Origin: a virus
Strand: one strand, 5' to 3'
DNA length: 64,000 nt
Virus record (IMG/VR): IMGVR_UViG_3300014839_000007
Both the position numbers and the translations under genes were made by a program. This document shows positions 2,430-62,747 of this stretch, piece after piece. Positions within the stretch are counted from its first letter, which is position 1, and every line of letters starts with the position of its first letter. A model generated the notes under the pieces. It saw only the letters and a list, made by a program, of their open reading frames with translations, did no database searches and was not told where the DNA came from.

Positions 2430-2704
2430 TTTATTATCTCAATTTTAAATTTATGCCCCACAAGTATTTTAGGAAAATAACACCAACCACTAAAGTTTTG
2501 TTTACGTTTGTGCTTTCTTCCTTTTACTTCATACACTCTTAAAACTGCATCTTCAAAACTTGTAGGCTTCCTATTTTTTCCAACACAAATCATAGTGTAC
2601 CCTTCTTTATAACATCCCCAGCAAACATATTTTCCTTCTATATCCTTCCTTGATTTTCTTACTTCTTTACCACACTTTTCACAATGTTCCTTTTTTCTAT
2701 TCAT
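2426..2704 (-). CDS. Zn-ribbon protein, paralog of 2115..2429
   Basis: CEKCGK...CWGC plus a shared C-terminal block. ATGA overlap with the upstream gene. Confidence 0.4.
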   Translation of the reverse strand: MNRKKEHCEKCGKEVRKSRKDIEGKYVCWGCYKEGYTMICVGKNRKPTSFEDAVLRVYEVKGRKHKRKQNFSGWCYFPKILVGHKFKIEIIK

Positions 2705-2852
2705 TTTTGTTGCTTTAACTCCTTAGATATAAATCTCCCATTTCTAGCTTTTATAAAACATTTTATACATAACTTCTGCCCCTTACCATGGGGAATAAAC
2801 CTTTTGTCACATTTAATACAATACCTTGCTATCTTTTTCTTTCCTTTAGTCA

Positions 2853-3791: not shown

Positions 3792-5819
3792 TCATTTTTC
3801 TACCAACTTATAAAATCCTCTTCTTGGCTCGTAAATTTTTATTTCTTTTTTTAATTCTTCCAAAAATATTTTTGTATCCCATTCACTTATACTTATTTTT
3901 TCTGCTTCCTCTACTATAGTTCCATACTTAGTTTCTTCTTCAATATTTCCCATTAAGGAATGCAATAATTCTAAAAACCTATCTAACTTTCCTCTCTTAC
4001 TCATTGGAATCCTTTCATTCATTCTAGAAAAGTCATACATTCCTGTTTCTTTATCTTTTACAAGTTGATTAACACAAAACATAAATATTTCTTTTGCTAC
4101 ATTTAAATCTAAAACCTCAACTTTATCACTTAACCTTAATTTAGCATGTGCTTCTGCTAATTTTACAACGGCTTCCATATTTCTTAAATTAACCGGAATA
4201 GTCTTCATATCAGGATTTCCCTTAGACTTTGCTCTAAGTTCAACATAAAATGATTGAACATCACTAACTAAACTATCATCAAGTATTGGCTTTAATTTTC
4301 TACAATAAGTAATGTATTTTTTAAAAAGAGATAATGGGACCTCTGGTTCCATCTTTTCTTTATATGACTTAAAAATATGCTCTACCGCTTTGGAATCAAA
4401 TTTTTCATTTGGTCTGTCTATTAAAATAAATATTAAATCAAATCTATTTAAAATTGGTGTAGGCAAATTAATCTGCTGCGCAAGGGATTGATTTAAATCG
4501 TAATTTCCCATTTTTGGATTTGCTGAAGCTAAAATGCTTGTACTTGCAGGAAGTGTTGCAGAAATGCCAGCCTTATTAATAGTGACTGTAGAACCAGACA
4601 TTGGTTCTAATAATTCTGAAAGATGCTCTGGATACATCTTATCTAATTCATCAAGACATAATGTTGAACCATTTGCAAGTACTAAAGCTCCTATTTCTAG
4701 CGACCATGTATTTGTTAATTCATCTTTAACCGCCATTGCCCCCAAACCTACTTTAGAAGTTTTTGTCCCAACAACCATTTTTGCTCTAGGTGTTCTTGCT
4801 GCTGTAGCTTTTAAAGAAACAGATTTTGCAATACCTACATCACCTGTAATTAAGATATGAATATCTTCTTGAGTATGCGAACCATCACTTCTTTCTTTTC
4901 CTACTCCTTTCACACACTGTAAACAAATTGCTTTTTTTACCATATCATTCCCATATACTTCTGGAACTAAACTTTGTGATAATTTTTCAAGAGGATTATC
5001 TGCTGCAATTTCTTTTATTGTTTGCATATCGTCTTCGGTTATTGTTAAATCGTCTTCAGAATCGCAGGGAATCACATTATTTGCATACATCATAAATTCA
5101 GATAAATTTGAATCCTCATCATTCACACTCATAAATGTAGGTAATTTCTTTATTATCCCAATAACTTCTACACGCCTTCCTGGTTGCAATCTTGAACACA
5201 ACGAACCGTCTGTTAATTCTTCCTCTAAATAAACTCTTAGCTGTTGAGGTTGCTTTCCGTCAAGATTGCCCTGTATCTCTTCTAAATTTAACTCTTGAAT
5301 ATTTTTAACTTCCTCCGATATTGCTGTAAATGTTCCACCTCTTAGTATACTTGCTCCACAAGAACATCTTTTTGGTCCTATTTTCTTTCGACCTTCCTGA
5401 TGAACATTTATCTCTATAGGGCAACTATTACATTTATATTTTATATTTATTGTTCGTGGAATTACCTTAGTTATTCTCTTAATAATTCCTTTTATATTAA
5501 AAATCTCATCAATATTATTTGCTCTTATATTATGAATATCTATATATCTATCATAATTCGTAAGTGCTATATGTGCATTCTTAGTCAGACCAGTATTATT
5601 GAGCGCTTGCTCCATTGCTCCTAATACCTTTTCAGGATTTAACAAAAATTCATCTGCAAGTTTATTAGAAAATTCTTTAACTTTTGTAAAATCAAGTGTC
5701 ATTACATTTGTTCTTTTACGCAAACAATCTCCTAAATCTTCTTTATTATAATTAAAAAAGTTTGCCGCTTCCATCAACAAATCCTCTTCTTCTTTTGGTG
5801 AAGGATTATTTTTTATCAT
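3792..5819 (-). CDS. mcm: MCM-family replicative helicase
   Basis: N-terminal C4 zinc finger (CNSCP...CSCG). Walker A ILITGDVGIAKS, Walker B CLDELDKM and arginine finger SILASANP match the MCM motifs GDPGxAKSQ, IDEFDKM and SVLAAANP. Confidence 0.85.
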   Translation of the reverse strand: MIKNNPSPKEEEDLLMEAANFFNYNKEDLGDCLRKRTNVMTLDFTKVKEFSNKLADEFLLNPEKVLGAMEQALNNTGLTKNAHIALTNYDRYIDIHNIRANNIDEIFNIKGIIKRITKVIPRTINIKYKCNSCPIEINVHQEGRKKIGPKRCSCGASILRGGTFTAISEEVKNIQELNLEEIQGNLDGKQPQQLRVYLEEELTDGSLCSRLQPGRRVEVIGIIKKLPTFMSVNDEDSNLSEFMMYANNVIPCDSEDDLTITEDDMQTIKEIAADNPLEKLSQSLVPEVYGNDMVKKAICLQCVKGVGKERSDGSHTQEDIHILITGDVGIAKSVSLKATAARTPRAKMVVGTKTSKVGLGAMAVKDELTNTWSLEIGALVLANGSTLCLDELDKMYPEHLSELLEPMSGSTVTINKAGISATLPASTSILASANPKMGNYDLNQSLAQQINLPTPILNRFDLIFILIDRPNEKFDSKAVEHIFKSYKEKMEPEVPLSLFKKYITYCRKLKPILDDSLVSDVQSFYVELRAKSKGNPDMKTIPVNLRNMEAVVKLAEAHAKLRLSDKVEVLDLNVAKEIFMFCVNQLVKDKETGMYDFSRMNERIPMSKRGKLDRFLELLHSLMGNIEEETKYGTIVEEAEKISISEWDTKIFLEELKKEIKIYEPRRGFYKLVEK

Positions 5820-8094: not shown

Positions 8095-8640
8095 TTATTC
8101 TAATAAAACTGCAACAGCAATTGTTGTTGTCCAAAGCCCACATTTATCCCCTTCACAGGATTGACATATTGACGTTGTCTTAAAAATTTGCCCAGATGCC
8201 TTGTAAACATCTTCCCTTTCTTCCCAGGCGGTATCAGGATTAAATTCAATTCCTAAAGTTGTTGCTAACATTGTCGCAGCTAAATCCTCAGCATAATCCC
8301 CTGCTTTTTTTGCTGTTTCTCCAAAAGTGTGGTGTTCTGACAAATAACCATACTGCTTATCATTTTCTTTTGGGACGGCTATACCAATTGCGGAAGCCAT
8401 TAATCTATTTGGTTCATTGGACTGTATCCTTGCCATTACACAAAAAGTAATCTGTCCTGGACTTAATTTTTTTAATCCTTCTTCCCTAGATATTATTTTA
8501 CAATTTGGAGGTAATATTGACGAAACATATACAAGATTGCACTTTTCAATTCCAGCATCTCTTAGTGCAAGTTCGAACGAACTTAATTTGTCTTTATGAA
8601 TTCCCACCCCTTTTGTTAAGAATAAATTAGTTGGTACCAT
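8095..8640 (-). CDS. pdaD: pyruvoyl-dependent arginine decarboxylase (PvlArgDC)
   Basis: Matches archaeal PdaD in length and the self-cleavage region (VYVSSILPP vs NLIRISSIMPP in M. jannaschii). Size is about 180 aa. Confidence 0.8.
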
Positions 8641-9343
8641 TTTATTATTTCAGTTTTTCTACCTTTTTAAATGTTTCTTATTTTTTGATTTTTGTTGACT
8701 TTTTTAAAGAATTTTAAAAGTTTTAACCTTTTTAACTTCTTTAATTTTTGATTAAAAACTGCTCATTTTTCTTCACTTTTGCGCAGGTTAATAATATAAA
8801 TAATAATATAGATTTTCCAATTTTTAAAAGTCTAAAACAAAAAGGGTGTCTCAGTCTTTTAACTTTTTGGGGTAGAAAAGGTGTTTTTGGCACTTTCAAG
8901 CCTTCAAGATACCCAAATTTGAGCTTTTAGAAAGTTAAAAGTGTTAACCTTTTTAAAGGTTTTCTACCAAATAGAAAAGGTGAAATATGCCTCTACAAGT
9001 CTTAATAAGTATAAATATAATACTTTACTATAATAATAATGTTCACCTTTTTAAAAAACTGGGGAGTACTGGTAGATACAACTGCTATAAAAAATGTAAA
9101 GTTAATACCCCTTACCGAATAACTATCATATAACACATATAAACAATATTGCTTCGAATATAATATATATTCAATTGAATATAATTTTAAATAATGGGAA
9201 AAATTTCCCAGAATATGAAATGGATATGATTTACAGTATATATTATATAAATGTAATTTTGAGAAATTTAATAATGTAATATAAAGTATGTAGTTTAATA
9301 TATAAATGGATGTAATAAAAATGACTAAAATTAGGTCAAAATT
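8641..9343. promoter_or_regulatory. ORF-free, extremely AT-rich region of about 700 bp with repeated AACCTTTTTAA/TTTTAAA elements; candidate origin or promoter region
   Basis: No ORF on either strand. Recurring aaccttttta(a) blocks at about 8724, 8945 and 9043. Lies between the replication module and repeat array A. Confidence 0.3.
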
Positions 9344-9522
9344 TATTCTTCTTCTGTCCAGTCATAAGCAATTATATTCTTGCCGTTCAAACAGCTATTC
9401 ATATGTTCTCCTTCTTCATTAAGGTCTAAAGGAGTTCCGTTTGCCATTGCTCTTTTACAAGCTGCCTTTAACTCTTCAAGCTCCTTCTTTGATAAATTTT
9501 CTAATTCATACATGTGCACCAT
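9344..9522 (-). CDS. small hypothetical protein (59 aa)
   Basis: Hand-translated as MVHMYELENLSKKELEELKAACKRAMANGTPLDLNEEGEH.... It falls below the 60-aa cutoff of the ORF track. Confidence 0.3.
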
Positions 9523-9530
9523 ATCTTCAC

Positions 9531-10245
9531 TTTATGAATATAAATTTCCTTACCACAACCAACTGGAGCCAACTTCATCGGACCTCAATAAAGCCCAACG
9601 AACTAGACTGCAACATAATGCACTGCAGGAATATGAATATAAAATCCTTACCTTAACTTGCTCCCTAAACTTTATCAAACTGGACCTAACAACGCCGTCC
9701 GAATGAATATGAAATCCACACCTTAACCTGAGCCCAATCTACCGTACTCCAATATACTAAACTGTGCTCCAAAAATATTAATATTTCCATACCTCAACAA
9801 AATGCACCGGGCTGGACCCTGCTTTACTGCATTATAACATACTTGAATATAATTCTGTACCTCAACTTACTCCTCCGAGCCTTATCAAACTGGACCTAAC
9901 AACGCCGTCCGAATAAATATAAAATTCCAAACCGTAACTGAGCATACTCTGCTGCACTGCACTTCATTCTACCACAAAGTGACAAACTCTACTCTATAAT
10001 TATAAATTTCCTTACCTTAACTGACCAAAGTATACTCAACAATGCCCAACAGCAAAATACAATACCTAATAAATATAAAAAATCCAAACCTTACCAGACA
10101 CTACCGAAACGGACAATAACAAACTTGAATTAACCACATGAATGTAAATCCTTACCTTACTCTACTGAAATATGCTCCATAATATCTCACTCAAGCATAC
10201 CGTATGAATATTAAACTCCTCAAAAATCAAAGGAGCAATTTTAAA
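9531..10245. repeat. array A: about 10 degenerate tandem units, period roughly 63-92 bp (mostly about 70), consensus TGAATATAAAATCCTTACCTTAAC plus G-depleted spacer
   Basis: Motif starts near 9541, 9633, 9705, 9775, 9845, 9913, 9997, 10067, 10140 and 10203. Spacers are A/C/T-rich with very few G on the plus strand. Stop codons in all frames. Confidence 0.8.
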
Positions 10246-10249
10246 AAAT

Positions 10250-11134
10250 TTATTTACTTGCCTTTGCCTTTATCGGAATTTCCCCCAAAATTAATTGAGG
10301 ATTAATTCCATCTTTTGTTAAGACAATCTTCGTGTTATTTTCCAAAGAAGCTTGAGTAACTTCTAATCTTTTCAATGTTATAGCATTGTCAACGAATGAT
10401 TTATTTATTAAATCAAATGCTTTAGCTTGTCCCTCTGCTGTTAAAATTCTTGCTAATTTATCTCCTTCTGCTCTTAAGATTTGTGCTTGTTTTTCTCCAT
10501 CAGCCTCTTTTATTGCAGCCCTTCTTTTACCATCAGCTTGTGTTTCATTAGCCGTAGCTAAATCCAATGCAGCATCCTTGGTATTTTGTGCCTTAATAAC
10601 ATTATTCATTGTTGCTTGAACATCTGCAGGAGGAATAATTTCTTTAAGTTCTACTTTAAGAACCCTAACACCCCAATCTTTAGTTTCTATAGATAATATG
10701 CTTTGAAGTTTATCATTGAGTATCTTTCTTTCACTATTTACTTCTTTGAAGAGCATAGTACCAATTACATTCCTTGCAGTTGTTCTTGCTAAAGTATCTA
10801 ACTGAGAATATACATCTTTAACTTCATACATTACATTATAAAGATTAGCTTTGTCCTTATCTATCTTAAAGTAAACAACTAAATCAACATTTGCATTAAG
10901 ATTATCTTTTGTAATAATCTCTTGTGGTTCTATATGTGTCATTTGTTCAGTAACATTAATTAATATTAATCTCTGAAATATAGGAAGCACATAATTAAGT
11001 CCTGGTTCTCTTATTCCAGAAAATTTTCCAAGAGTTTCTACAACTCCTCTGCTGTTTGGTCTAATTGTTCTTATTCCAGAAAGAAAATAAATCACCAAAA
11101 TAACTAAAATTGCATATAATATATATTCTATCAT
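10250..11134 (-). CDS. SPFH/band-7 (stomatin/prohibitin-like) membrane protein
   Basis: N-terminal TM helix, then a typical band-7 core (RGVVETLGKFSGIREPGLNYVLPIFQRL...DNLNANVDLVVYFKI) and an Ala/Gln-rich coiled-coil tail. Confidence 0.8.
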   Translation of the reverse strand: MIEYILYAILVILVIYFLSGIRTIRPNSRGVVETLGKFSGIREPGLNYVLPIFQRLILINVTEQMTHIEPQEIITKDNLNANVDLVVYFKIDKDKANLYNVMYEVKDVYSQLDTLARTTARNVIGTMLFKEVNSERKILNDKLQSILSIETKDWGVRVLKVELKEIIPPADVQATMNNVIKAQNTKDAALDLATANETQADGKRRAAIKEADGEKQAQILRAEGDKLARILTAEGQAKAFDLINKSFVDNAITLKRLEVTQASLENNTKIVLTKDGINPQLILGEIPIKAKASK

Positions 11135-17000: not shown

Positions 17001-17041
17001 AATATATATCCCAATCTATATCCATATTTAAATTATTTAAA

Positions 17042-18167: not shown

Positions 18168-18703
18168 TTTGGTTCAAACCCCACAGTAACCATTGGAGAA
18201 GTATCTACATAATTTTCTCCGAATACAATATTTAAATTCATATCTAGCATTCTTTGTAATCTTGCTGGAACAGACAAATAATAATTAGATACTCCTTCAT
18301 ATCTTTGTCTAGGTTCTCTTAAAGAGAATGTAACTACGAATAGTTTACAGACTCTTATTTTATCTTTTAATTTAAGAATATTCTCTTTTTCTCCAGATAA
18401 AGTTCCGCAAAAATCTAAATAAATAACATCTGCTTTTAATTTACTGGATTTAAAGTTTGATATATTTCCCCTATTTAAGGATAGAATATTCTTAAATTTA
18501 GATTTATATTGTTTCATTCTTTTATAGACTGTATAATCCTTTTCATAGATTAAAAATTTAACATTAGGCAACATTTTAACTAATTCAAATTTTGGAGACT
18601 CTAATGCTAAAATCTTCTTTGGCTTATATTTCAAGATAAGGTCCGTTAGTCTTTGCCTAACCTTATCTTTATTTGGTCTATCTTCTTTATAATCAAATTC
18701 CAT
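18164..18703 (-). CDS. hypothetical protein; possibly a Rossmann/SAM-dependent methyltransferase
   Basis: DVIYLDFCGTLSG resembles SAM-binding motif I. Adjacent to a ParB-nuclease-domain gene. Weak call. Confidence 0.25.
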   Translation of the reverse strand: MEFDYKEDRPNKDKVRQRLTDLILKYKPKKILALESPKFELVKMLPNVKFLIYEKDYTVYKRMKQYKSKFKNILSLNRGNISNFKSSKLKADVIYLDFCGTLSGEKENILKLKDKIRVCKLFVVTFSLREPRQRYEGVSNYYLSVPARLQRMLDMNLNIVFGENYVDTSPMVTVGFEPK

Positions 18704-25234: not shown

Positions 25235-25642
25235 TTAATTTCTTTTTTCATTTAACCTCTTTCTTAAACCTACCAGTGTTTCATCTGACTCTTCTTTCCA
25301 GTCATTTTCATCTAACAAATCTGCCCAACCAAATACACTCCAATTAACTTCATATTTAACTTCTTCAAAATTATATTTAGCAATTAAGCCTTCTTTAACC
25401 TCTTCAACCATGTATTGAAAAGATGGTTTTAAAGATATTTCATCCTTCTTTTCCTCTTCAATTAAATCTCTACAAATAGTAGCAATCATTTCTGTTATTT
25501 CTTCATTTGAAAATTTCTTCTTGTGGCTTAATTCAAAATATTCACTTTCTTCACAAGAATAATATCCAATCTTATAATTATACATTTTTACATTTCTCAC
25601 ATTTATATAAAGAAAAACCACCCAACCATTTATAGAGTTCAT
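25235..25642 (-). CDS. hypothetical acidic protein
   Basis: ORF lying downstream of a heptad motif. Confidence 0.35.
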   Translation of the reverse strand: MNSINGWVVFLYINVRNVKMYNYKIGYYSCEESEYFELSHKKKFSNEEITEMIATICRDLIEEEKKDEISLKPSFQYMVEEVKEGLIAKYNFEEVKYEVNWSVFGWADLLDENDWKEESDETLVGLRKRLNEKRN

Positions 25643-25757: not shown

Positions 25758-25781
25758 ATTTTAGCCTTTAGCATTTAGCCA
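25758..25781 (-). promoter_or_regulatory. triple heptad KGCTAAA element (copy 1 of 5)
   Basis: Plus strand tttagcctttagcatttagccac; in gene orientation GTGGCTAAATGCTAAAGGCTAAA. Confidence 0.5.
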
Positions 25782-27362
25782 CACCATATCTTGCTGAAGT
25801 CCGCCTTAAAGTACCGGACAGGAATGGACTGCATTGTACCATCCTTAGTGAATATAATCTGGACCGAACCATCTTTACCGAAGTCCAACTTACGTGACCG
25901 GGCTTCAATGGACTACGCCACATGAATATAGTTATGGTGCGATTTATTAAATTAAGTTAACGTTAATTGGGGTAGGTGTAGTAAGGATTTCATAATAATT
26001 ATTTTACAATTTTCCTACCTTCAACCTTACCCTTCTTTTTTAATTCTTCATTTTGGTTTTTTATTCTACCAATACAATAAAAACAAACGTAACCAAATAA
26101 ACATTCGTATATAGTATAGCTGTCTGCATCAAACCATTTACCACAAATGCAGCATTGTTCTTTACAAAAAACATTATTCTTTAATCTGTATATTTTTAAA
26201 TTCATTTTCTACACCTTAGCATACTTCGCTCCGACTTACTTTAAGGCACTTCATTGCACCTCTCTAGACTTCTAACTATGAAAATAACTTTTTTGACCTA
26301 TCCGAATTTAAAAAATTTATTAATCCTCTTCTTCATCAATTATGATTTCATCTTCATCAACATCTACATCCATCATATCATCTATTTCTTCATCATCTTT
26401 TTCTTTTAATTTTTCTTTTTCCATTTTTCCTCCTTTCACTTTTCTTCTACTAAAAAATAATGCCAAACTAACCTTTCCTTTTTATCAGCGATTGATAGTT
26501 TAGATTTTACATCGTGTTTCCAAGTAGTAACTTCTTCAACCAATGTAGTCAAATAAATTGCTCCTTTTGGTATTTCCATTCCTGTTCCATACTTATATAC
26601 TTTTTTCATTTAATTCCTCCTTTATAAAATTTTCCTAACCATACCTTAACTTAATACACCCCACTGCACTCCACTTCTCTTTATCAAACTCCACTGAAAC
26701 ACATTACACTGAGCCTGACTTTATGAATATGAAAATCCTTGCCTTAACTCACAATACCTAAACCACATACCAACTCAACTTACTCAACCTTGAATATAAT
26801 TCCAAACCCCACCATAACAAACTCCAATTAAGTATACCTTACAAGACCCAATCAGACTAGAATGCAACACACTAGAACATTATTTTTTGAATATGAAAAT
26901 CCTTACTGCACCTTACCTTTCACCTTATCCCAATGTAACGTAGCTTACTGCTTCTTACCAAAATGGAGCATACCAAATCGGACTATACAGCACTCCGACA
27001 AATATGAATATAAATAAATTCCGCACCTTAACATAACCCATCACACAACATCACACTATACTCAACCCCAAACTACCCTTAACTATAAATATAAATCCTT
27101 ACCTTATCCCATATAAACTTGACCGGACATTACTCCGCCTTACTTAACCAAGCCTAAATAAATATAAATTCCGCACCATATCTTACAGCATTTTGCTTTA
27201 CTCTACCAGACTAAACTGGACTCCGTGAATATAAAATCCTTACCTCAACATTCCCTACTTACCTTACTGGGCTGGAACCCACTTTGAATATAATTCCAAA
27301 CCTCACTTAACCTTATCTTACCCTATTGCAACTCACAAAATAATACCATTCCTAAATATAAA
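25782..27362. repeat. array B: degenerate roughly 70-bp unit array interrupted by three tiny minus-strand ORFs
   Basis: Motif starts near 25845 and 25918, then 26724, 26791, 26888, 27005, 27083, 27155, 27226, 27286 and 27352. Same consensus and G-depleted spacers as array A. Confidence 0.75.
25999..26205 (-). CDS. small Zn-finger protein embedded in array B
   Basis: CCICGKW...CFYC. Confidence 0.35.
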   Translation of the reverse strand: MNLKIYRLKNNVFCKEQCCICGKWFDADSYTIYECLFGYVCFYCIGRIKNQNEELKKKGKVEGRKIVK

Positions 27363-27508
27363 TTTAAAAAAATAAAAATTAGTCTAAACTTTCTTTTGGA
27401 TAATTTAATTTGATTTCTTTTACTGCTTCTCGGTATTCTTTAGAATTTAATCCGAAAATTCTTTCGGCATCTTCTAAATCATTCCACAAATCAATTAAAT
27501 CAGCCATT

Positions 27509-28138
27509 TTACGCTGTAGCTACAGTGAACATTCCGTATTGACCTCCGTGTTGAGGTGTCCACGAACCAACTCCAATGTGAAATCCAGCTAGCTTTGCTA
27601 ACTCAATTATCTGTACTGGGGTTATTTGCTGTTCATTGTACCTAATTGTTAAGACACAACTCCATTCTTGAAACTCTGGTCTCCATATTTCTCTTGGGGC
27701 TCTATTTATACCACTATCCCTGCCCATAGCTTTGTTGGTTACTTGTTTCTTATATTTTATAGGTGCTAATTCCCCCAAAATAAAGAAAGAACCCTTAGCT
27801 TTCTTTTTATCCAGACCATCCAAATATGGTGCTGCTTCTACCATAGCTTTCTTAAATCCACTAGTTGGAAAACACACTTCACCCTTTGAGTTTTTGTGTA
27901 TCTTTTCCTTAACTTCGTTTTCTAAGTCTCTATTCTTGTTTTTCTCTTTTCCTTTACCTTCAACCATATTCTTAAGTTGTTCTCTAATTCTATCACTCAT
28001 TTTTTCTTGCAACAAAGATGTTTCTCCATTAACTTTTAATGACATCGTAGCAATTTTAATTGGAGTAATAGTTACCTGAACTTTCTTATTAGGTGTCTTT
28101 TCAACTTCAACTTTCTTCGCCTTATCTTCTTTTATCAT
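27509..28138 (-). CDS. conserved hypothetical protein (GSWTPQHGGQYG family), intact paralog
   Basis: 209 aa. C-terminal GFHIGVGSWTPQHGGQYG is shared with 28781..29382. A repeat unit lies immediately upstream. Confidence 0.5.
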   Translation of the reverse strand: MIKEDKAKKVEVEKTPNKKVQVTITPIKIATMSLKVNGETSLLQEKMSDRIREQLKNMVEGKGKEKNKNRDLENEVKEKIHKNSKGEVCFPTSGFKKAMVEAAPYLDGLDKKKAKGSFFILGELAPIKYKKQVTNKAMGRDSGINRAPREIWRPEFQEWSCVLTIRYNEQQITPVQIIELAKLAGFHIGVGSWTPQHGGQYGMFTVATA

Positions 28139-28214
28139 TTCTTTTTACCTCCTTTCATTTATATAAAATATTCCTTACCTTAACTGAACTCAATCCTGCT
28201 CAATCACACCTTAC

Positions 28215-28415
28215 TTAAGTCCGTCTCGGTTTGCGTACTTCTTCCCAATCATTATTCTCTTTCTTTTTAGTGAATTTTTGAAGTAAATCCTTGTGCCCAC
28301 AATTTTTACACACTAAAACTATCTTAAACAATTCTTCTTCTTTTATATTCGGATGTTGTTCTGCAAACTCTTTTAAAGTTATAACTTCCGGTTCTTCTTC
28401 TTTTATTTCTTCCAT
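28215..28415 (-). CDS. small hypothetical protein with CxxC
   Basis: ORF preceded by a repeat unit at about 28416-28500. Confidence 0.3.
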   Translation of the reverse strand: MEEIKEEEPEVITLKEFAEQHPNIKEEELFKIVLVCKNCGHKDLLQKFTKKKENNDWEEVRKPRRT

Positions 28416-28780
28416 TTAATATATGTCCGCACCAAACTGAATCACTATACCCTAATCCACCCTATAGCATCGTACCATAAATATTATTCTTTGTTAATTC
28501 TTTCAATTTCCTTTTTTACTGCTATTTGAATTAAAGTATCATCACTATAGCTCATACCATCTTTAGCCAAAAGCAATCTCCTAAAATCTTCAAGCAACTT
28601 TTTTGTTTTATCTTTCATTATTAATCCTCATCCAAATAATCCTCACTATGAAAATCTTTAATTGCTTGTTTTTTATCCTTTAAACTTATCATATCTGTTA
28701 ATACATCTAAACTATTTCCTCTAACCCACATTTCTGCAATTCTATAAAATTCATCTTCTATTTCTTCTTTTTTCATTTTA

Positions 28781-29382
28781 TTATTTAACTTTAAATTTAC
28801 CATATTGACCTCCGTGTTGAGGTGTCCACGAACCAACTCCAATGTGAAATCCAGCTAGATTTGCCAATTCAATTAAATCTTTTTCTGTTATTCTTTGAGA
28901 ATTATATTTAATTGTTAGAATACAATTCCAATTTTCAAATGAGGGGTATCGCATAAGCCTTTTTGTTTTTTCTCTGCCAAAATTGATGCCAAAAAATCTA
29001 ATTGTACTTTGTTTCTTATATTTAATAGGAACTAAGTCACCTATAATAAAGAAACCTCCCTTTGTGTCACCCTTACTTAAATGTGAATGATATGGACTTG
29101 CTTCTACCATAGCTTTCTTAAATCCACTAGTTGGAAAACACACTTCACCTTTAGCATTTCGATGTATCATTTCATCCACTCTTTTTTGTAATTCTTCTTC
29201 TTCATCATAATCCTTTAACGTTTTACTCTTCCCTTCAACCATATTCTTAAGTGTTCTCTAATCCTATCACTCATCTTTCCCATAATTAAAGGACTTGTTC
29301 CTTTAATATTTAATTTCATTGTAGCAATCTTAATCGGAGTAATAGTTACATTTACTCTTTTTTTTATGTTTTGAAAATTCAT
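28781..29382 (-). pseudogene. frameshifted paralog of 27509..28138 (1-nt deletion near 29250)
   Basis: Track ORF 28781..29242 aligns to residues about 60-209 of the intact copy. The N-terminal 47 aa (MNFQNIKKRVNVTITPIKIATMKLNIKGTSPLIMGKMSDRIREHL) are encoded in another frame at 29243..29382. The plus strand has aagtgttctc here versus aagttgttctc in copy 1. Confidence 0.5.
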
Positions 29383-29472
29383 TTTTTGTTTCCTTTTTAA
29401 TTAAATCTAAACCTTACCTTATCTCATTTCACCTCAATGGAACTTATCTAACTGCCCCATACTTAAGAATAT

Positions 29473-29856
29473 TTATATTTCTTCTGTAAACTCCATAATC
29501 CTTTCTGCAATTTCTCCCTCAAGGGAATAATATGTTTCTCCACAAATAACTGCTGGGTCTTCTATACCACTTTCTTCGGCTATTTTAGTATTCAGGTTTA
29601 TCTCCGGATGTTGTATTTCCACAACGTCACTAACCCTATCAATTATTTCATTCGCTAACTCTTCATATTTAGAAAACATTTCTTCATCTGTTTTATTTTC
29701 TAATCTTTTAATTATTTCCTTTCTTAAATCTTTTTTTCTTGTGTTCAAGAAAGTATTATTTGCTTTAACTTCAAATTCAATATTATCTATCCAAAAACTG
29801 TCTCCGACACAAAAATCTCCATCATTTACAGCTATTAAAAATTCTTCTCTTTTCAT
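29473..29856 (-). CDS. hypothetical acidic protein
   Basis: Minus-strand ORF. Confidence 0.35.
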   Translation of the reverse strand: MKREEFLIAVNDGDFCVGDSFWIDNIEFEVKANNTFLNTRKKDLRKEIIKRLENKTDEEMFSKYEELANEIIDRVSDVVEIQHPEINLNTKIAEESGIEDPAVICGETYYSLEGEIAERIMEFTEEI

Positions 29857-30326
29857 CTTTCTTTTAATTCCTTCTTTTTAATTATGATATTCGCTCCTAA
29901 TTTAGGAGAATAAACCATTACACTAATTTTAGTTATTTCCTGTAAAACTTCAACATTATCAACTAATCTTTCCCCTTCAAATTCTAAATCAATATGATAT
30001 TTTTTCATATTCTATTAAATGATTTTCCAATTTCCTTTTTTGGAACTTTTATTTTAAATCCAGTAGGATATTCTGTTAATTCTACTTCATCATTAAAATC
30101 TTTAGTACACTCATATTCTATTCCATTTAAATCCCTAAGCCATTCTTTTATTTTCATTATAATCCTTACCTTATCACACTCCAAAGCACCGAACTTAAGT
30201 CCGCAAGTACCTTACTTTATGAATATAAATCCACACCATAACGCTAACGAAGTGAGCCTTAATACACTTAATCTTGCTGTACTCCACTGTTACTAAATAA
30301 AACCCACTGCACTTAACCACATAATA

Positions 30327-30917
30327 TTAACTAAATTCTATAATCATCTTTCCTTTTTTAGGAACTCTTGAAAAGTAAAAGAATGCTTCCCATTCTTCAA
30401 TTTGTTTTACTAATTTTCCAAAACTTTTAATATAATATTCTTTTGGTTTAATATGAATCTTCGTTATAACTTTTTTGTAGTCTCCATATAATTTATAATC
30501 TAACTGGACATTCTTAAATTCATAAGGCAATTTCCATGTTCTTTCCTTAATATTTTTTACAATAACTACTTTTTTAGTCCCAAGATAACCATTAAAGATT
30601 TTTTGGTTCCATTTATCTATCCAATTATTATATTCTGGATAAAAAATTAATCCAATTAGATAATTAATAAACAGTAATCCAATAAAAGCATAATACCATA
30701 GATTATCTGTATGCCCTATAATTAGTTTTAATATAAAACTTAGTATAAAACACAATAAAGCTGCACTAATAAGGATTAACCCATTTATATTCGGGCCAAA
30801 TCTACTTTTCTTAAATCCACCTTTTTTTTGAGGATTAATTAGTTTAACTTTCTTTTTCTTAAAGTCAATTATTACCTCAGCTAAATCTCCTGAATCGCCT
30901 GCTTGATACGTTTTCAT
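30327..30917 (-). CDS. membrane protein (3 TM)
   Basis: Hydrophobic helices LILISAALLCFILSFILKLIIG and YYAFIGLLFINYLIGLIFY. Confidence 0.4.
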   Translation of the reverse strand: MKTYQAGDSGDLAEVIIDFKKKKVKLINPQKKGGFKKSRFGPNINGLILISAALLCFILSFILKLIIGHTDNLWYYAFIGLLFINYLIGLIFYPEYNNWIDKWNQKIFNGYLGTKKVVIVKNIKERTWKLPYEFKNVQLDYKLYGDYKKVITKIHIKPKEYYIKSFGKLVKQIEEWEAFFYFSRVPKKGKMIIEFS

Positions 30918-31045
30918 ATATTACTCCTAAAAGTCTACTTCACAGACTGGGTCTCCGAAGATTCTTCCTTTCTTAGGGGTTTCAACTTCTATGTCATCTT
31001 CTTCAACTTCTTCAACTACCTTTTTCTTTGCCATTTTACACCTCC

Positions 31046-31648
31046 TTATATTTTAGATAATAACACAATTTTATTAATAACACCTTGAAAATCTTTCTTT
31101 ATCTTTCTTCTTGGAATTTTTTTCATTTCAAAAAGATGTTTAATATATCCAATATATTCATTTGTAGCAAATTCATAAGACAATTCTTTGTTATAATTAC
31201 CAGGCTTTATATCGCCTCTTTCCCATATTTTAACATAAGAATAAAAGCTCTCTTTTTTTCTAAATATAAATTTATTTTTAAGAACTTCTGCATTTCCCTT
31301 ATCTTTATATCTCTCATCTGGAGAAGTATATTCTGAGCAAACAGCAATTATATGATTTATAGAATAACAATCATTATCTGTTTGGGGATTAAAATATCTT
31401 ATTTCAAAGTTAAATCTTTCCTTCTCTTTTGAAGAGTGTGATTCATAAGCATCGATTGTTAATATTAATGTATTACAATCATATACTGAAATTGTAAAAG
31501 TCGTATAATTTCTCCAAGCTTCATCTTTTATATCTGTTACCTTAAAATCAAAGTCTAAAAACTTATAGTCTTTTTTATTTAACCAAGCCTTACTTATAGT
31601 TAAAGATTTTAATTGACTTAGACGTCCCATTCTATTTCTTGCACTCAT
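31046..31648 (-). CDS. hypothetical protein (200 aa)
   Basis: ORF preceded by a motif copy (GGTATGGGATTTTATATTCA) about 20 nt upstream of an AGAGGA Shine-Dalgarno. Confidence 0.35.
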   Translation of the reverse strand: MSARNRMGRLSQLKSLTISKAWLNKKDYKFLDFDFKVTDIKDEAWRNYTTFTISVYDCNTLILTIDAYESHSSKEKERFNFEIRYFNPQTDNDCYSINHIIAVCSEYTSPDERYKDKGNAEVLKNKFIFRKKESFYSYVKIWERGDIKPGNYNKELSYEFATNEYIGYIKHLFEMKKIPRRKIKKDFQGVINKIVLLSKI

Positions 31649-31659
31649 ATTTTTTCCTC

Positions 31660-31985
31660 TTTTTGAATATAAAATCCCATACCATAACTGAATGGACCGT
31701 GCATCACCCTACCTGAGTAAATCGCACTGTATCATACACTACTCCATGAATATAATCCTTACCACAACAAATTAAACTCCACGCCATCGTACTCCACCCA
31801 ACTGCAATGGAACTCAACTATAATTAATGAATATGAAATCCTTACCTTAACCTTAACATAGCGGAAGTTACCACACTGGAATACACTCCAATATGACTAT
31901 GAATATAATCCATACCTTAACGGACCGGGGCTTACTCCGCCTGACTCAACGGCAACTTACTACACTATATTGCACCGGAATAAAT
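31660..31985. repeat. array C: 5 units of the same roughly 70-80-bp repeat
   Basis: Motif starts near 31664, 31747, 31828, 31899 and 31977. Confidence 0.7.
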
Positions 31986-32237
31986 ATAATCTGGTTTTGG
32001 ACTTTTATATTGTTCATAATCCAAAACTGTTTTTAATACACCATCACTTATTATTAAATACATTTCATTATACTTTAAAACAAAATTAAATTTATTTGTT
32101 TCTTCAATAAGTTCCCCATCTTTTAATGCTTTTTTCAATAAGATAATAGTTTGTTTTTTATCTTTTAATTCAAACCTTTGTCTTGCTCTCATTATAGCAT
32201 GACTGCTTATATCGGTTAATCCATTTCTTTTTATCAT
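31965..32237 (-). CDS. hypothetical protein
   Basis: The start codon is immediately preceded by GTTGAGGTAAAGATT, the Shine-Dalgarno-like half of the repeat motif. Confidence 0.3.
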   Translation of the reverse strand: MIKRNGLTDISSHAIMRARQRFELKDKKQTIILLKKALKDGELIEETNKFNFVLKYNEMYLIISDGVLKTVLDYEQYKSPKPDYIYSGAI

Positions 32238-36723: not shown

Positions 36724-37200
36724 TTAATCTAATTTATGTTCTATTTTATTTACATACTGATAAATTCCACAAATACCTGTGTATTCTGTTTTATCATAAT
36801 CTACAATTTTATTCAAATTCTCCGTAGATAGATATTTCTTAAATCTCTCTTTATACACAAAGCTAACTCCTATGTAAATCCTATCATTAATTTTTTTAAG
36901 ATATTCATTAAGTCTTTTGAACCATTCTATAATACATCCTTCACGAACTCTCTCAAATCTTCTCTGAGATTGTCCACCCTGCCTTTGCTTATTAGGTATA
37001 GTAGAATGAATATCAAAAATCTTTTCTATTCCGCCATCAGTAAAAACATTCGCACAATAAGCTTCTTGTAAATCCAAGACCAATATTGTGTATTTTATTT
37101 TTCTGTCGGTATCTAACTTCAATAGTTCTTTTCCACAATGGTATTTCTTTTCTTTTCTCTCGTAGGGAACTATTGTTAAATCATCGTCATCCCAATACAT
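36724..37200 (-). CDS. stand-alone release-factor aRF1/eRF1 domain-2-like protein with GGQ motif
   Basis: IPNKQRQGGQSQRRFERVREGCIIEWFKRLNE aligns to the aRF1/eRF1 GGQ loop and helix (eRF1: [28 protein letters not shown]). Flanking ILVLDLQEAY matches eRF1 FIVIDGSGALF. Only about 158 aa, so no N or C domains. Confidence 0.6.
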   Translation of the reverse strand: MYWDDDDLTIVPYERKEKKYHCGKELLKLDTDRKIKYTILVLDLQEAYCANVFTDGGIEKIFDIHSTIPNKQRQGGQSQRRFERVREGCIIEWFKRLNEYLKKINDRIYIGVSFVYKERFKKYLSTENLNKIVDYDKTEYTGICGIYQYVNKIEHKLD

Positions 37201-38386: not shown

Positions 38387-38767
38387 TTATCTTTTTCTAT
38401 AATCTCTAATAATTCTTTTTCTTTGTCTTTTAATTGTTTTAAAACTTTTATAATGGAATTCTGGAAGATAACCTATATCAGCAGTATTTTCTCCATAAGA
38501 GTCTGATTTAATAGAAATCCCTTTAACATTTAGATATACTTCCGTTCCTTCTTTTTTATCTTCTTCATCAGCATATGGACCACATATTTTAATTTTTGTT
38601 GGTTCTCTTTTTGAGTAAAAATTATCAAAAGCAATCCTGTAAATATTACTTATTTTCATTATATCACCAACCTTCTCAGAATAAGTATTTCTAATTTCTT
38701 TTGCAAGATTTTCAATCTCTTCAAATTTATATTTATTTTCTCTACATGCTTCTAGTATACTTGTCAT
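38387..38767 (-). CDS. hypothetical protein
   Basis: The start codon lies 2 nt downstream of a heptad element. Confidence 0.35.
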   Translation of the reverse strand: MTSILEACRENKYKFEEIENLAKEIRNTYSEKVGDIMKISNIYRIAFDNFYSKREPTKIKICGPYADEEDKKEGTEVYLNVKGISIKSDSYGENTADIGYLPEFHYKSFKTIKRQRKRIIRDYRKR

Positions 38768-38769: not shown

Positions 38770-38792
38770 TTTAGCCTTTAGCATTTAGCCAC
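38770..38792 (-). promoter_or_regulatory. triple heptad KGCTAAA element (copy 2)
   Basis: Plus strand tttagcctttagcatttagccac, identical to copy 1. It overlaps the stop of 38778..39083 (VAKC*). Confidence 0.5.
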
Positions 38793-39030
38793 TTCTTTTT
38801 TAATTTCCTTCAATAAGTTTGATATTAGATTAAAGTTATCATAAAACCCTTTCTTAATCGGTTTTCCTTCAGAAACAAATTTACCATATAACGCACTATT
38901 TATATCTTCCATATTCATTTTATTTTCTATAAATGTTTCAAATAAACCAAGCAACTCTAATTGAGAATAGTAATGGAAATGCGGTTCTAAATCCCAATAT
39001 CCTTTTCTTAATTCTTTAGCATAAGTCTTT

Positions 39031-39339
39031 TTATCCCACACAATCATTTTTCCATTCTTCCTCCTTATACCTTTTCTTCCCATCAGTATTTAATTCATTA
39101 TCATAATCAAAACGTATTTTAAAAGCATTCCCACATTTATGGCATTTAACAATTATTCCACCTTCAAGCTCCACACTATCATAATAGCCACTCTCAGCTT
39201 GGGCAAACCCATTAAATTCAACCACCTTGCTCATACATTTATTACAAACTATTGAAAACTTATCAAAATCCCACTTAGAAGATTTTTTATCCATATACTT
39301 CTCTTTAAACTCCTTTACACTCATTTTTGTTTCTTTCAT
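39031..39339 (-). CDS. Zn-ribbon protein
   Basis: CNKCMSK...CHKCGN. Confidence 0.3.
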   Translation of the reverse strand: MKETKMSVKEFKEKYMDKKSSKWDFDKFSIVCNKCMSKVVEFNGFAQAESGYYDSVELEGGIIVKCHKCGNAFKIRFDYDNELNTDGKKRYKEEEWKNDCVG

Positions 39340-44904: not shown

Positions 44905-47765
44905 TTTATAGTTTTTCTACAATTTTTAATTTATTAATAAGTCCATTAAGGTTTTTTACTTCTTGATTATTCAATTTGAATAATTCTATACAACTATAAT
45001 CATTGGTAAATCTTCCAGTTTTAATATTCCTTAAAAGGATAAAATTATTTATTCTGCCGTTCCAACAAAACACTTCTGGTCCACGTTCTATAATCTTATA
45101 ATCTCTTTTGTAAATTTTAATCAATTTAGAGAGAACCCCACTTAAAGAATTCTCATTATCATATTTATCTCTTAGAATACCATAAACCTTACAGTGTTCT
45201 TTATTATTAGTAAATTCTTTATTAATTGGCTTAATATAAATCATATCTCCAACATTAACTTCACTATCTTTAGTTATTGCTTCCATTTTGGATTATTATT
45301 TATCTTTTCTCCCTTGTAATTTTTAATATTCTCTAATTCTTCTTTAAATTCATCATCATCCATATCGTCCCACCTATCTTTTAGATTTTCCCCCAATTCG
45401 TCAATATAATAACACAACCTCTCTTCAATACTTAATTTATCCAATTCATCTGATAATTTCATAATATTTTCTTCTTCCATTTTATTCATTATACCACAAT
45501 TTTTCTTCTTCTTTTGTTAGTTCACCTTCTATCATAGTTAAATCAACACCATCTGTATAAAAACAAACTCTCTTATTTTTCCAATCAACCCACAAAGCCC
45601 CTGCACTATAATCTCTATCAAGAGCTTCTTCAATTAACAAACTTCCATCTGGACGAACCCCAAAGTCTGTAATATATTCAAATCCAAAACTGGATAGCAT
45701 AGCATCTGCAATCTCGTCATCACTTTCACCTTCTAATTTTTTAATTATTTTTTCGTTCTTTTTCATTACACAAACTCCCTACAAGCATTTCTTTTTTCCA
45801 ATTCCCTTCTTCTTTTTCCATTTTTTCTTTACTTTGTTTTAATATACCTTCCATTTCCTTTAATTTATTAGAACTATTCTCAATCCATTCTTTAGCACAA
45901 TCACTGCATACCCTTATAATTACCAGAACATTTTTTAATCATATTTAATGCAATATTTCCTTTTCCTATTTTTCCTTCACAATAAATACACTTTTGGTAT
46001 CCATCATTCCTTGCTTTAGCAAATGCTATAAATTCATTAAATTTAATCGGTTTCATTCTAACTTAAACATCTCCTTTAGTTCTTCAATAGCATCTCTTTT
46101 TTCATCAATATTCCAGTCCCTCATCTGTTCCATCAAACTTCCTTCATCTTTCCAACTCCTTACATATTTCCAAAATTGGTCATCATCTAATTTTAGCATT
46201 ATCAAATCATCAAACTCCTTATCAATCTCATCATCACTTTTATTCTCTAATGCCTTGATTATTTCTTTTCTTTTATCCATTATTTTATCCCACCTGCATT
46301 CAATATTTTTCTTGGTAATGAATTAAATTTTTCAAAAGTTTCACAACTATTGGTGGGGGTATCACCCCAACTCATACCACCACTTAAAAATATAACTTCT
46401 CCTTTATGTTCAATTTCAGCAACATCTCTATATCCAATACTATCAAATGTTTCTTCTATAACATTCTTTAAAATCTTTTTTGAAGCTTCAATATAGTTTT
46501 TGTTATCCTCAGACTTTATTAAAGAAGATATTATCTTTTTCCTTAAATCCTTTTCATTATTTTTAATGTTTTCAGTTTCAGTTTTAATTTCTTCCTCAAA
46601 AGAATGGTCTTCCATATAACCTTCCATTTCATTTAAATCTTTAATATTTATTTTATCAACTGCCTTTAACATTTTATCTCTGGTTTCTTTCAACCCCTTT
46701 TCTGTTCTCTTTTCTTTTTTAATAGTAAACCAAGATACAATTAAATCTGCTCCCATTATTCCTCACTCCCAGAATTTCCCCAAATCACAACCTTTGATTT
46801 TTTATCTTTACTACCATCATCAAGATACTCGGCTTGAATATCAGAGAAGATAGCATTCAATTCTTCATCACAACTAACTAAAATTCGTGCTTCAGGATTA
46901 AACCCATTTAATTTTTTTATAAATTCTTTTACTTTCATTGTTTTTTCCTTAACTTAAATTTCTGGCAATTACAATCCTTACCAATTACTTCCATTTTATA
47001 ATTGAAATGGAGATTAGCATTTTTCCAACACCAACCAATTTTATCATTATGTATTTTCCTGTAATGTCCACATTCACAGATATCATAACCTCGCTTTAGT
47101 TCTAACTTTTCTTTTTTCTCTAATTCTGCCTTTTTCATTTTAATAATTCTATATCTTCATCTTCAATCAAAGCCTTTTGCTCTTTAAGATAATCAATATA
47201 ATTCAGAGTAATCGTATGAAATTCCTTTTCATCTTTTTCTTCTTCTATATCAATAAGTTTCTGAATAAGTTCACTCTTTTTCATTTTTCCATATCTTCTA
47301 TAATTTCTTTTAAAGTATCATAAGCATCAATAATCAATCCTCTTTTAAGACATGACATCGCTGCCAGAATCTTATGTTCATATTTTTTCTTGTCTTCACT
47401 CATTTTGCACCTCCAATAAATATAATGGGGTTTTTACAATTTTGGCTCTACCCTCAAACCATCGATTACCTCTATATGAGATTATAAATTACTAAGAATA
47501 ATTTCCTTTTTCTGTTGAATAATTAATTTATCAAGTTCTTTAGGAAGTCTTTGTAATTTTTCAAGATTATTTGAAAATTCATCTTTAATGCTTTTCACCT
47601 CTTCTGTAATCTTTAAGGGAAAACATTTATAGCAATAATAATGTTTAGTAATGTGACTACCCCCATAAGTTGAAATTTGAATTCCTCTTGGAGTTCCCTT
47701 TCCAATACGCTTTCCGCAATTGTTACACCCTGCTCTATCACTCGGACTAATTTCAATACCTTCAA

Positions 47766-47984
47766 TCATTTTAATTTATCAATTGCTTTTTTAGTTAATT
47801 TATACATCCTGCCATTTGAAGTCAACAAATATCCTCTTTCAGTCAAATAATCACAAGCACTCTCAAAAGCAGATAAACATTCATTATCTATTTCAGTCAT
47901 ATCTTCATTACCACAACTTTGAATTAATACATCCAAAAGTAATTCATCTATAGCCGAAGTATCTATTATCACCTTACTATTCAT
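47766..47984 (-). CDS. small hypothetical protein
   Basis: Preceded by heptad element plus Shine-Dalgarno GGAGAAAAA. Confidence 0.3.
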   Translation of the reverse strand: MNSKVIIDTSAIDELLLDVLIQSCGNEDMTEIDNECLSAFESACDYLTERGYLLTSNGRMYKLTKKAIDKLK

Positions 47985-47993
47985 TTTTTCTCC

Positions 47994-48014
47994 TTTAGCA
48001 TTTAGCCATTAGCC
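47994..48014 (-). promoter_or_regulatory. triple heptad KGCTAAA element (copy 3)
   Basis: Plus strand tttagcatttagccattagcc. Confidence 0.5.
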
Positions 48015-48296
48015 AATATTTTCAGTAATCCTTAATTTTCTTAATTCACCCAAGACAAATTCCCTTATTCTGGAATTTGTCAATTTCCCAAAACCCTCTT
48101 CTTTTTCTTTTTTAATCATAATATCTGTTTGTTTATAGCAATCCTTGCATATATTTATAGTTCCTACAATCTCCCCAAATACTTTAATCTGGATATTTTC
48201 AGAACAGCTTTTACACAAATCTTTACTACAGAATTCACAATCAAATTCTTTTACCTTATTTTTACAATCATCACATATTCTTATTGTAGTTTCCAT
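48009..48296 (-). CDS. B-box-like Cys-rich Zn-finger protein
   Basis: CDDCKNK...CEFCSKDLCKSC...CKDC. Confidence 0.35.
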   Translation of the reverse strand: METTIRICDDCKNKVKEFDCEFCSKDLCKSCSENIQIKVFGEIVGTINICKDCYKQTDIMIKKEKEEGFGKLTNSRIREFVLGELRKLRITENIG

Positions 48297-57175: not shown

Positions 57176-57196
57176 TTTAGCATTTAGCCGTTAGCA
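57176..57196 (-). promoter_or_regulatory. triple heptad KGCTAAA element (copy 4)
   Basis: Plus strand tttagcatttagccgttagca. Confidence 0.45.
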
Positions 57197-57631: not shown

Positions 57632-58069
57632 CTATTCTTTCTTATTTTTATCATTTTTACCTTCTTTTGCTTTACCAAATAACTTCATCGTTTCAAATAT
57701 CCAAAACTGGTCTTCTGTTAATACCCCTGTAGCAAGAGCAGTTGGTGTACCCATACTTACTTCAGTTATACCTTCGTCAATATAAAGATGGTGTGGAATT
57801 TGCCATTGTTTTAAGTATTCAGCAATTCCAAATAACTCTAAACTATTCTTACATTGTAAAACAATAACACACATTCCATTATCTCTCCATTTTTCTTTTA
57901 GTTCTTCAAAATATCTATTACCTCTATTTCCATTTCTGATATAAAGTCCCTCATTTTGTCTTTCAAGAGCCATAAATGTTGCGTGTGCTGTTTGACTTGC
58001 AATTTTTCCTGCTGACATCTTTGGCAGTTTAGGAACTATTACAAATTGTTTATACTTTATTTCTATCAT
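57632..58069 (-). CDS. pth2: peptidyl-tRNA hydrolase, PTH2 (archaeal/eukaryal type)
   Basis: VIVPKLPKMSAGKIASQTAHA, VIVLQCKNSLEL and YIDEGITEVSMGTPTALATGV align with PTH2 conserved blocks (VVRxDLxMxxGKxxAQxxHA; IxDAGxTQxxxGxxTxLAIGP). Confidence 0.7.
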   Translation of the reverse strand: MIEIKYKQFVIVPKLPKMSAGKIASQTAHATFMALERQNEGLYIRNGNRGNRYFEELKEKWRDNGMCVIVLQCKNSLELFGIAEYLKQWQIPHHLYIDEGITEVSMGTPTALATGVLTEDQFWIFETMKLFGKAKEGKNDKNKKE

Positions 58070-62533: not shown

Positions 62534-62734
62534 TTATTTTTTATCATTTTTTATAAATTTCTTTAATTCTTCTATTTTATCTTCACTATTAAAAATAATA
62601 TAAAATGTATTATTAAGCCCAACTTTTATTCTCTTCTTAACAATAGCAAAAGATATCTGCTCTTTGCTTATTTTATCATAATATTTTGCTTTTTTAAAAT
62701 CCATTGTAATATAATTTTTATCATAATTTAGCAT
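62534..62734 (-). CDS. small hypothetical protein whose ATG lies inside a heptad element
   Basis: The start codon is the ATG of the TGCTAAA heptad (atgctaaattatg... = MLNYD). Confidence 0.3.
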   Translation of the reverse strand: MLNYDKNYITMDFKKAKYYDKISKEQISFAIVKKRIKVGLNNTFYIIFNSEDKIEELKKFIKNDKK

Positions 62735-62747
62735 TTAGCCTTTAGCC
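62727..62747 (-). promoter_or_regulatory. triple heptad KGCTAAA element (copy 5)
   Basis: Plus strand tttagcatttagcctttagcc. Confidence 0.45.

Follow-up and report, generated by a model that had tools for sequence, protein, structure and literature searches.

The omega repressor of inc18 plasmids such as pSM19035 recognizes the heptad (A/T)ATCAC(A/T), which is present in 7-10 units per operator, in direct and inverted orientation, and overlaps bacterial promoters. In Bacillus, the trimeric face of HutP reads three short UAG motifs with a four-base spacing, corresponding to a period of 7, in the antiterminator leader of one operon, and TRAP blocks translation via repeated triplets near start codons. 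In phage T4, a single protein, RegA, acts on the mRNA of numerous dispersed early cistrons, repressing each by binding across its start codon. Borg repeats and the STRR heptamers of cyanobacteria consist of locus-specific units with variable copy number, pointing to slippage.

The nearest precedent for the element described here is a set of intergenic-only short repeats in a tailed archaeal virus, HF2. These comprise a 58-bp class I and a 29-bp class II, the latter composed of three AT motifs separated by C residues; both a canonical TATA box and a start site are present in them, and reporter assays showed promoter activity (Russ, Pfeiffer and Dyall-Smith, 2021; PMC8707807). Long primary transcripts with likely processing have also been documented in haloarchaeal tailed viruses (PMC8707807). 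The HF2 repeats resemble the present element in that they are conserved in sequence and position among related viruses, confined to a region and proposed as docking sites for viral regulators, and the three AT-rich motifs of class II, set between few G/C bases, are formally similar to GC-TAAA repeated three times. The present element belongs with such virus-specific intergenic regulatory repeats, but differs from those of HF2 in its strict 7-nt tandem arrangement, its frequent location inside operons and directly against ATG codons, its switch of core sequence and the lack of a TATA at a fixed distance.

The window analyzed is a stretch of 64,000 nt from the IMG/VR record IMGVR_UViG_3300014839_000007 and belongs to a 116,319-bp ENA contig. 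It has 29% GC and is approximately 91% coding, with approximately 170 ORFs, most of them small and nearly all on the minus strand. The Pfam scan covered 173 ORFs of the window (64 of the 116 kb), with the best 25 of 39 families considered for the 100 longer ORFs, and identified an MCM helicase (237 bits), an ATP-dependent ligase, ParB_N proteins, a DUF2201 protein and a Band 7 protein. The MCM shared 50-73% identity with unnamed metagenomic proteins and 35-40% with MCMs from Nanoarchaeota and Woesearchaeota. For the AAA-type ATPase encoded beside it, 451 homologues were found, the largest contig among those carrying them reaching 116 kb; two of these homologues sit in MAGs labelled 'archaeon' and 'Candidatus Woesearchaeota'. 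No match to 14 kb was detected among GenBank phage records (megablast), and searches with the MCM and with an ATPase alignment detected no relatives in IMG/VR. No tRNAs were found in the window, and Rfam gave no match, whether gathering thresholds were applied to the whole window or E < 1 to 25.6-32.4 kb. We infer that the window represents a large virus- or plasmid-like, DPANN-associated element from a family whose members measure roughly 100 kb, 'virus' being a presumptive designation, with structural genes not seen. Related genomes, designated here by L numbers, were obtained as the flanks of ATPase homologues, and the contig of the window itself was extended to 83 kb.

The window further encoded a stand-alone eRF1 domain 2/VLRF1-like protein (36724-37200, minus strand; Pfam E = 2.6e-11), kept in L262, and a PTH2 peptidyl-tRNA hydrolase (57632-58069, minus strand), which together represent translation-termination or ribosome-rescue functions. 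An AT-rich non-coding region of 700 nt with AAAAGGT(G/T)AAC-like repeats (8641-9342) is located upstream of the PvlArgDC arginine decarboxylase gene (8095-8640). In addition, an 18-nt tandem repeat (AATAGCAATTCCTAAACA, 3.3 copies) was present at positions 1-56, inside or beside ORF 114-725.

A search for three consecutive KGCTAAA heptads with up to 3 mismatches located five places in the window, all on the minus strand (25760-25780, 38770-38790, 47994-48014, 57176-57196 and 62727-62747), in agreement with the original prediction. Six overlapping matches were counted against 0.04 expected from 100 dinucleotide shuffles, and the window contained no period-7 repeats besides these five. The 14-mer GGCTAAATGCTAAA was invariant, being exact in all five copies. 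The order GGCTAAA TGCTAAA GGCTAAA, which had been ascribed to every copy, was found in two, and these also share the 23-nt identity noted earlier (GTGGCTAAATGCTAAAGGCTAAA); the other three are permutations or near-variants of that order.

In the copy at 38770-38790 (GGCTAAA TGCTAAA GGCTAAA), the upstream gene (38778-39083) terminates at the TAA of heptad 2. The element is followed, after 2 nt, by the ATG of the downstream cistron (38387-38767, minus strand; M-T-S-I-L-E...), with neither a Shine-Dalgarno (SD) site nor a TATA box. Alignment showed that the orthologues of this cistron in L284, L285 and L286 start at the aligned methionine, and the homologue in L284 likewise bears a triple heptad. 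The copy at 47994-48014 (GGCTAAT GGCTAAA TGCTAAA) is extended by a fourth, degenerate heptad, GGAGAAA (47987-47993; together 47987-48014), which supplies a GGAG SD sequence to the ATG at 47984. The upstream Zn-finger gene (48009-48296) ends at the TAA of heptad 1, and in L287/L288 a triple heptad is also located 3' of the homologous Zn-finger gene. An overlap with an upstream stop, predicted for one copy, is therefore real but supplied by two (38.8 and 48.0 kb). A conserved non-coding sequence, GGTTTGAGGGTAGAGCC(C)AAAAT..TAAAAACCCCA, was observed upstream of a small gene in the window (47404-47481) and in L287 (approximately 4005-4070); in L287 this stretch directly follows a heptad copy, and in the window two extra genes lie between.

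In the 57.2- and 62.7-kb copies, the upstream stop ends 0-1 nt ahead of the element. The copy at 57176-57196 (TGCTAAC GGCTAAA TGCTAAA) is preceded by a TGA ending 1 nt before it, and is followed by a 36-nt spacer containing a T/A-rich run and the SD-like AAGGGGGT, with the ATG at 57139. For the copy at 62727-62747 (GGCTAAA GGCTAAA TGCTAAA), the TAG of the upstream gene ends directly before the element at 62748, and a 66-aa ORF is called from the ATG within heptads 2-3 (62734); this start inside the element, part of the original prediction, was also picked by an independent gene caller.

The copy at 25760-25780 (GGCTAAA TGCTAAA GGCTAAA), flanked by GGTGTGG and the TATA-like ATTATAAAA, is located at the end of the last of a series of G/T-rich non-coding units, and the next sizeable ORF (25235-25642) begins approximately 117 nt downstream. 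These units, approximately 21 in number and 60-120 nt long, form tandem arrays on the minus strand (25800-32000 and 9500-10250). Their interiors are variable, with recurring AGT/GGT and no Rfam match, and each ends in a conserved box, GTTAAGGTAAGGAtTTTATATTCA, which resembles the BRE/TATA of the canonical promoters of the family; the 25.8-kb heptad copy falls inside the last box of this type. The G/T-rich arrays may be tiny transcription units or small RNAs.

A sixth copy was found on the same 116-kb contig, approximately 6.5 kb past the upper end of the window, in the contig extended to 83 kb. The six copies of this genome thus lie within approximately 48 kb, spaced 5-13 kb apart, in the half with small ORFs. 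Downstream of 25.7 kb, a stretch of 35 kb that holds the MCM and ParB genes contained no triple heptad. Such restriction to a single section of the genome would suit a regulon or temporal class. Other assemblies of the same genome were 99.9-100% identical and therefore uninformative on variation in heptad number.

The position of the copies relative to genes must be read with the stop codons of the heptad in mind. Read in sense, each heptad carries TAA, and read in antisense it carries TAG (TTTAGC), both recurring every 7 nt. Because 7 equals 1 modulo 3, three heptads stop all three sense and all three antisense frames, so that a triple GCTAAA heptad is never found inside an ORF, and in a 91%-coding genome it is forced to lie beside a stop and a start. 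The consistent position within the window is therefore no evidence by itself; any repeat with stops in six frames will always appear consistently upstream of genes, which is a methodological warning for similar analyses.

In eight related genomes, 27 non-redundant GCTAA-type copies were identified, all on the gene strand and all with exactly three heptads; isolated doublets were not found. The element was present in every sampled close relative (ATPase identity 75-83%), and also in L186, L262 and L289. Bases outside the core were uniform inside one genome and different among genomes, with variants such as GCTAATGGCTAAA[TC]GCTAA in L286, GGCTGAGGGCTAAGGGCTAA in L285 and GGCTAAACGCTAATGGCTAAA in L289, and with two heptad subtypes in L287; such genome-specific bases are the pattern expected of a co-evolving reader encoded by the element's own genome. 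For 13 of the 27 copies, only 0-3 nt separate the last GCTAA from the ATG. When orthologues, among them those of DUF2201, were aligned at their N-termini, the abutting ATG was shown to be the true start, and these genes have no SD site. In 17 of 27 copies, the end of the upstream ORF falls within the element or no more than 2 nt away, which places most copies at internal operon junctions. Elsewhere the spacer measures 5-120 nt and in some cases includes an SD site; 8-9 copies stand 36-120 nt from the ATG. Across copies, the offset of the ATG from the start of the motif ranged from -6 to about +140.

A variant core was found in L295, a 109.7-kb JGI contig whose ATPase is 55% identical. Its heptads read (GGCGA[AC]n)x3, e.g., CTGGCGAACGGCGAATGGCGA, six of the copies following the gene strand and three running in reverse. 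One T-to-G substitution separates GGCGAAT from GGCTAAT and leaves no stop codon, so that the L295 heptads could sit anywhere in coding sequence. Nevertheless, a called start was located at -6 to +24 of the element in four of the six plus-strand copies (binomial P = 2e-4), which removes the caveat that the position is forced by stops. Some starts arise within GCGAATGGCG, and some copies fill codons 2-8 of operon-internal genes with ATGA overlaps; the ATG takes varying places within the element or lies 5-6 nt upstream. Of the reverse copies, one overlaps a called minus-strand ORF start, and the other two have only tiny candidate ORFs. At the level of the genomes compared, L295 shows that heptad orientation is tied to gene direction and that heptad specificity changed between lineages (GCTAA vs GGCGA). 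The bias toward gene starts in the original prediction thus persists in the stop-free copies of L295, although its consistency within the window is largely forced by stops. The three reverse GGCGA triplets of L295, together with several copies of GCTGACCTATCCG/CTCACCTATCGG, are located in a non-coding hub beside a phage-integrase gene (2000-3500), which may be an attachment, origin or control region.

The exact 7-nt period, sense orientation and three motifs were common to all copies (36/36). Judged by this comparative pattern, the triple heptad is functional, and its interpretation as a dedicated recognition element is borne out by conservation in eight genomes, location on the gene strand, the constant three heptads and the clustering at starts in L295; the proposed type of recognition is considered below with the promoter signals.

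More distant relatives (L290, L296, L297, L298 and L121) had no triple heptad in the 16-22 kb sampled. A scan of IMG/VR with the 14-mer core gave single chance matches only, and a scan of IMG/VR and metagenomes with a 20-mer pattern gave mostly unrelated simple tandem repeats, the true relatives being only L186 and L262. Unrelated viral contigs of high GC content (58-62%) contained many dispersed intergenic arrays of 3-6 GGCT[AG]A[AG] heptads (L057, L062, L087 and L127, IMGVR_UViG_3300011438_000025 and _000400; L126, L142 and L155, IMGVR_UViG_3300044800_000405; L085). These arrays occur in both orientations, often as inverted pairs able to form long hairpins, and some lie 2-18 nt ahead of ORF starts; they appear to be a separate phenomenon sharing the heptad.

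Promoter signals in the window's virus family were well defined. Among 146 genes with an upstream spacer of at least 30 nt, TATA-like 8-mers peaked sharply with starts at -31 to -29 from the ATG, which is the classical archaeal leaderless geometry (TATA at -27); examples are the window ParB_N gene at 22722 and the repeated AACCGAAAGATTTAAATAC...ATG in L121. Strong SD sequences (GAAAGGAGGTAA) were also found, with a perfect GGAGG before 29 of 177 genes compared with 1% of random positions. Most heptad copies that abut an ATG lack a TATA at -27, scoring 3-5 of 8 there. Upstream of the element, a TATA at a fixed distance was weak (16 of 36 sites, 44%, vs 29% background), and only 3 of 36 sites reached 7 of 8 TATA matches. 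Downstream of several long-spacer copies, a canonical and well-placed TATA followed after 0-15 nt, namely at ParB_N (L284, L286) and DUF7557 (L286) genes, and the window 57.2-kb copy is, more loosely, also upstream of a canonical TATA. A TATA-like run directly after the element was seen in a few copies (window 25.8 and 57.2 kb; L285:16004). GCTAAA would also fit RNWAAW, the loose consensus of the purine-rich BRE that directly precedes a TATA box. SD mimicry by AAAGG at heptad junctions was rejected, since several variants lack AAAGG. A further promoter-like motif with a period of 9 nt, (TTTAAATnn)x2-3, was observed directly upstream of ATGs, with the first TTTAAAT at the canonical TATA position for a leaderless start (window 17001-17041; L293 approximately 18540-18585, on the same contig outside the window; L121 1516, 12305 and 14230).

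We tentatively favor the reading, which we regard as possible rather than established, that the triple heptad serves as an operator near gene starts, bound by a virus-encoded multimeric factor whose target is probably the mRNA. The operator would consist of three 7-nt subsites near the start codon with the consensus nGC[T/G]Ann, here (G/T)GCTAAA. Its putative reader would be a sequence-specific nucleic-acid-binding factor encoded by the lineage, contacting one heptad per subunit in the sense orientation. The ligand would most likely be mRNA, in which case the operator would lie at the 5' end of long polycistronic transcripts or between their cistrons, where ribosomes begin the downstream cistron or next to that point. 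Binding would switch a dispersed gene set on or off jointly, in this genome at six junctions; in a less likely version, the transcript would be cleaved at the element. Protein binding, the choice of RNA over DNA and the sign of regulation are each presumptive.

The sense orientation in all 36 copies, the fixed number of three, the position at start codons, those of operon-internal cistrons included, and the lack of a local promoter are most simply explained if the element acts in the transcript. A reader of this kind would resemble HutP and TRAP, since three sense-strand repeats with a period of 7 are involved; RNA binding of the heptad element is presumed, and the host domain is archaeal. No HutP/TRAP homologue was matched in the bulk Pfam lists shown for the window ORFs. 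As with RegA, the mRNA operator would form a translational regulon over start codons, which may belong to internal cistrons of polycistronic transcripts; unlike the tandem heptads, RegA sites are single, AU-rich and only loosely conserved, and no RegA homologue was found. Several observations weigh against an mRNA operator. The search for a binding protein yielded no candidate, only generic winged-helix, HTH and Zn-ribbon matches, and the copies 36-120 nt from the ATG are too distant to keep ribosomes off by simple occlusion. In several cases a well-placed canonical TATA follows the copy after 9-15 nt (ParB_N in L284/L286, DUF7557 in L286); such a copy would be absent from the mRNA of that promoter, unless read-through transcripts from upstream matter. 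Further, the L295 reverse copies in the integrase-side hub look more like a DNA control region. In predicted RNA structures, the element was no more unpaired than its flanks. An antisense-RNA partner was rejected, as no sense-strand TTTAG[CT] period-7 repeats occurred in 83 kb.

Rather unlikely, in our assessment, is a class-specific promoter, in which the triple heptad would be the core site of a virus-specific initiation factor or polymerase and transcription would begin in or just after it, yielding leaderless or short-leader mRNAs of a temporal class. The strict sense orientation, the closeness to start codons and the short SD-bearing spacers after some copies are in line with this, as are the restriction to one genome region and the genome-specific variants, which resemble polymerase-promoter pairs. 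Copies ahead of canonical promoters could then be tandem promoters of two classes. The HF2 intergenic repeats, which carry promoters, provide a precedent (PMC8707807). Against it, TATA/BRE are not at the canonical distance, and if heptad 1 served as the TATA, transcription would initiate approximately 9 nt inside abutting ORFs whose N-termini are conserved from that ATG. Tandem-repeat core promoters are also unusual, and the variable ATG position in L295 is awkward for a fixed start site. Moreover, no RNAP, TFB/TFIIB, TBP or sigma-like family was among the Pfam families shown for the 173 window ORFs (best 25 of 39 families for the longer 100). The TFB/sigma-type or promoter site suggested in the original prediction was thus not borne out, given the lack of a fixed-distance TATA, the many copies inside operons and the lack of a cognate family among those shown.

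We are likewise doubtful of a DNA operator for a virus-encoded transcription regulator, e.g., a ribbon-helix-helix (RHH) protein with one dimer per heptad, which would repress by roadblock or occlusion over gene starts and activate or repress from sites just upstream of BRE/TATA. Archaeal transcription regulators usually bind just upstream of the canonical TATA, and at several genes the copies are indeed 0-15 nt upstream of one. The L295 non-coding hub, with its three copies and other repeats, and the many small Zn-ribbon and winged-helix proteins encoded in the window are also compatible with such an operator. Direct 7-bp repeats are the format of omega-type operators, which similarly provide one protein unit per heptad and are dispersed before several operons as a regulon. 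Unlike omega operators, in which heptads are variable and larger in number, the present element always has three, always in sense, and most copies are at operon-internal junctions with no local promoter; a simple operator would need no fixed orientation. No match to RHH_1, Omega_Repress, Arc or MetJ was obtained for 73 small window ORFs at E < 0.01, a threshold at which divergent RHH proteins can escape Pfam. Regulators of this kind are a common mode of regulation in archaeal viruses (PMC8707807).

A more specific proposal, a heptad code of DPANN viruses in which a trimeric virus-encoded reader recognizes three nGC[T/G]Ann subsites at the 5' ends of selected cistrons, underwent the GCTAA-to-GGCGA switch and serves either a translational operator or a TATA-independent promoter class, seems quite improbable as a whole.

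Still less probable is that the 21-mer acts as a microhomology at which gene blocks are shuffled, its stops and ATG keeping the joints functional. Gene order is heavily shuffled among the relatives, every element is located at a synteny break with the window or at the edge of a variable block, blocks in L287 are flanked by copies and a two-gene indel lies beside the 48.0-kb copy; the copies within a genome are also homogenized. Synteny breaks are, however, about equally frequent away from the element, the variants between genomes would hinder inter-genome exchange, and the L295 form carries no stops and is located inside coding sequence at gene starts.

A pure translational insulator, in which one TAA per frame halts every ribosome before the next gene, would account for three heptads as the minimum covering three frames, for the retained stop (TGA) in the GGCTGAG form of L285 and for the heptad TAA serving as the upstream ORF stop in at least 9 of 27 sites, but it does not explain the conserved GC and spacer bases and is essentially refuted by L295, where GGCGAAn is stop-free in any frame while the triple-heptad form and gene-start position are retained, leaving it with hardly any probability. 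Replication-origin iterons were rejected, the copies being dispersed 5-13 kb apart over approximately 48 kb with none near the MCM gene, as was a slippage microsatellite or Borg-type repeat; Borg and STRR repeats are similar as short intergenic tandem repeats, in large archaeal extrachromosomal elements or genomes with one-strand gene arrays, but the heptad element has the same unit at many loci and across genomes, with the number fixed at three.

Literature on the heptad and on DPANN viruses with MCM yielded no description of the element, which appears to be undescribed so far. To our knowledge, very little has been learned about how the viruses or plasmids of DPANN archaea control their genes, and we know of no archaeal virus for which virus-specified transcription initiation has been described. 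The triple heptad provides a short, exactly definable mark of a co-regulated gene set in a widespread uncultured family, which aids the annotation of gene starts and regulons in related genomes and allows testing of operon-internal, start-codon-proximal control in archaeal viruses. With at least two specificity variants, the cognate factor may be findable by co-variation. If the element proves to be a TATA-independent promoter class, this would imply virus-specified transcription initiation; if it proves to be a programmable translational operator system, it would represent a mode of control so far unknown in archaeal viruses.
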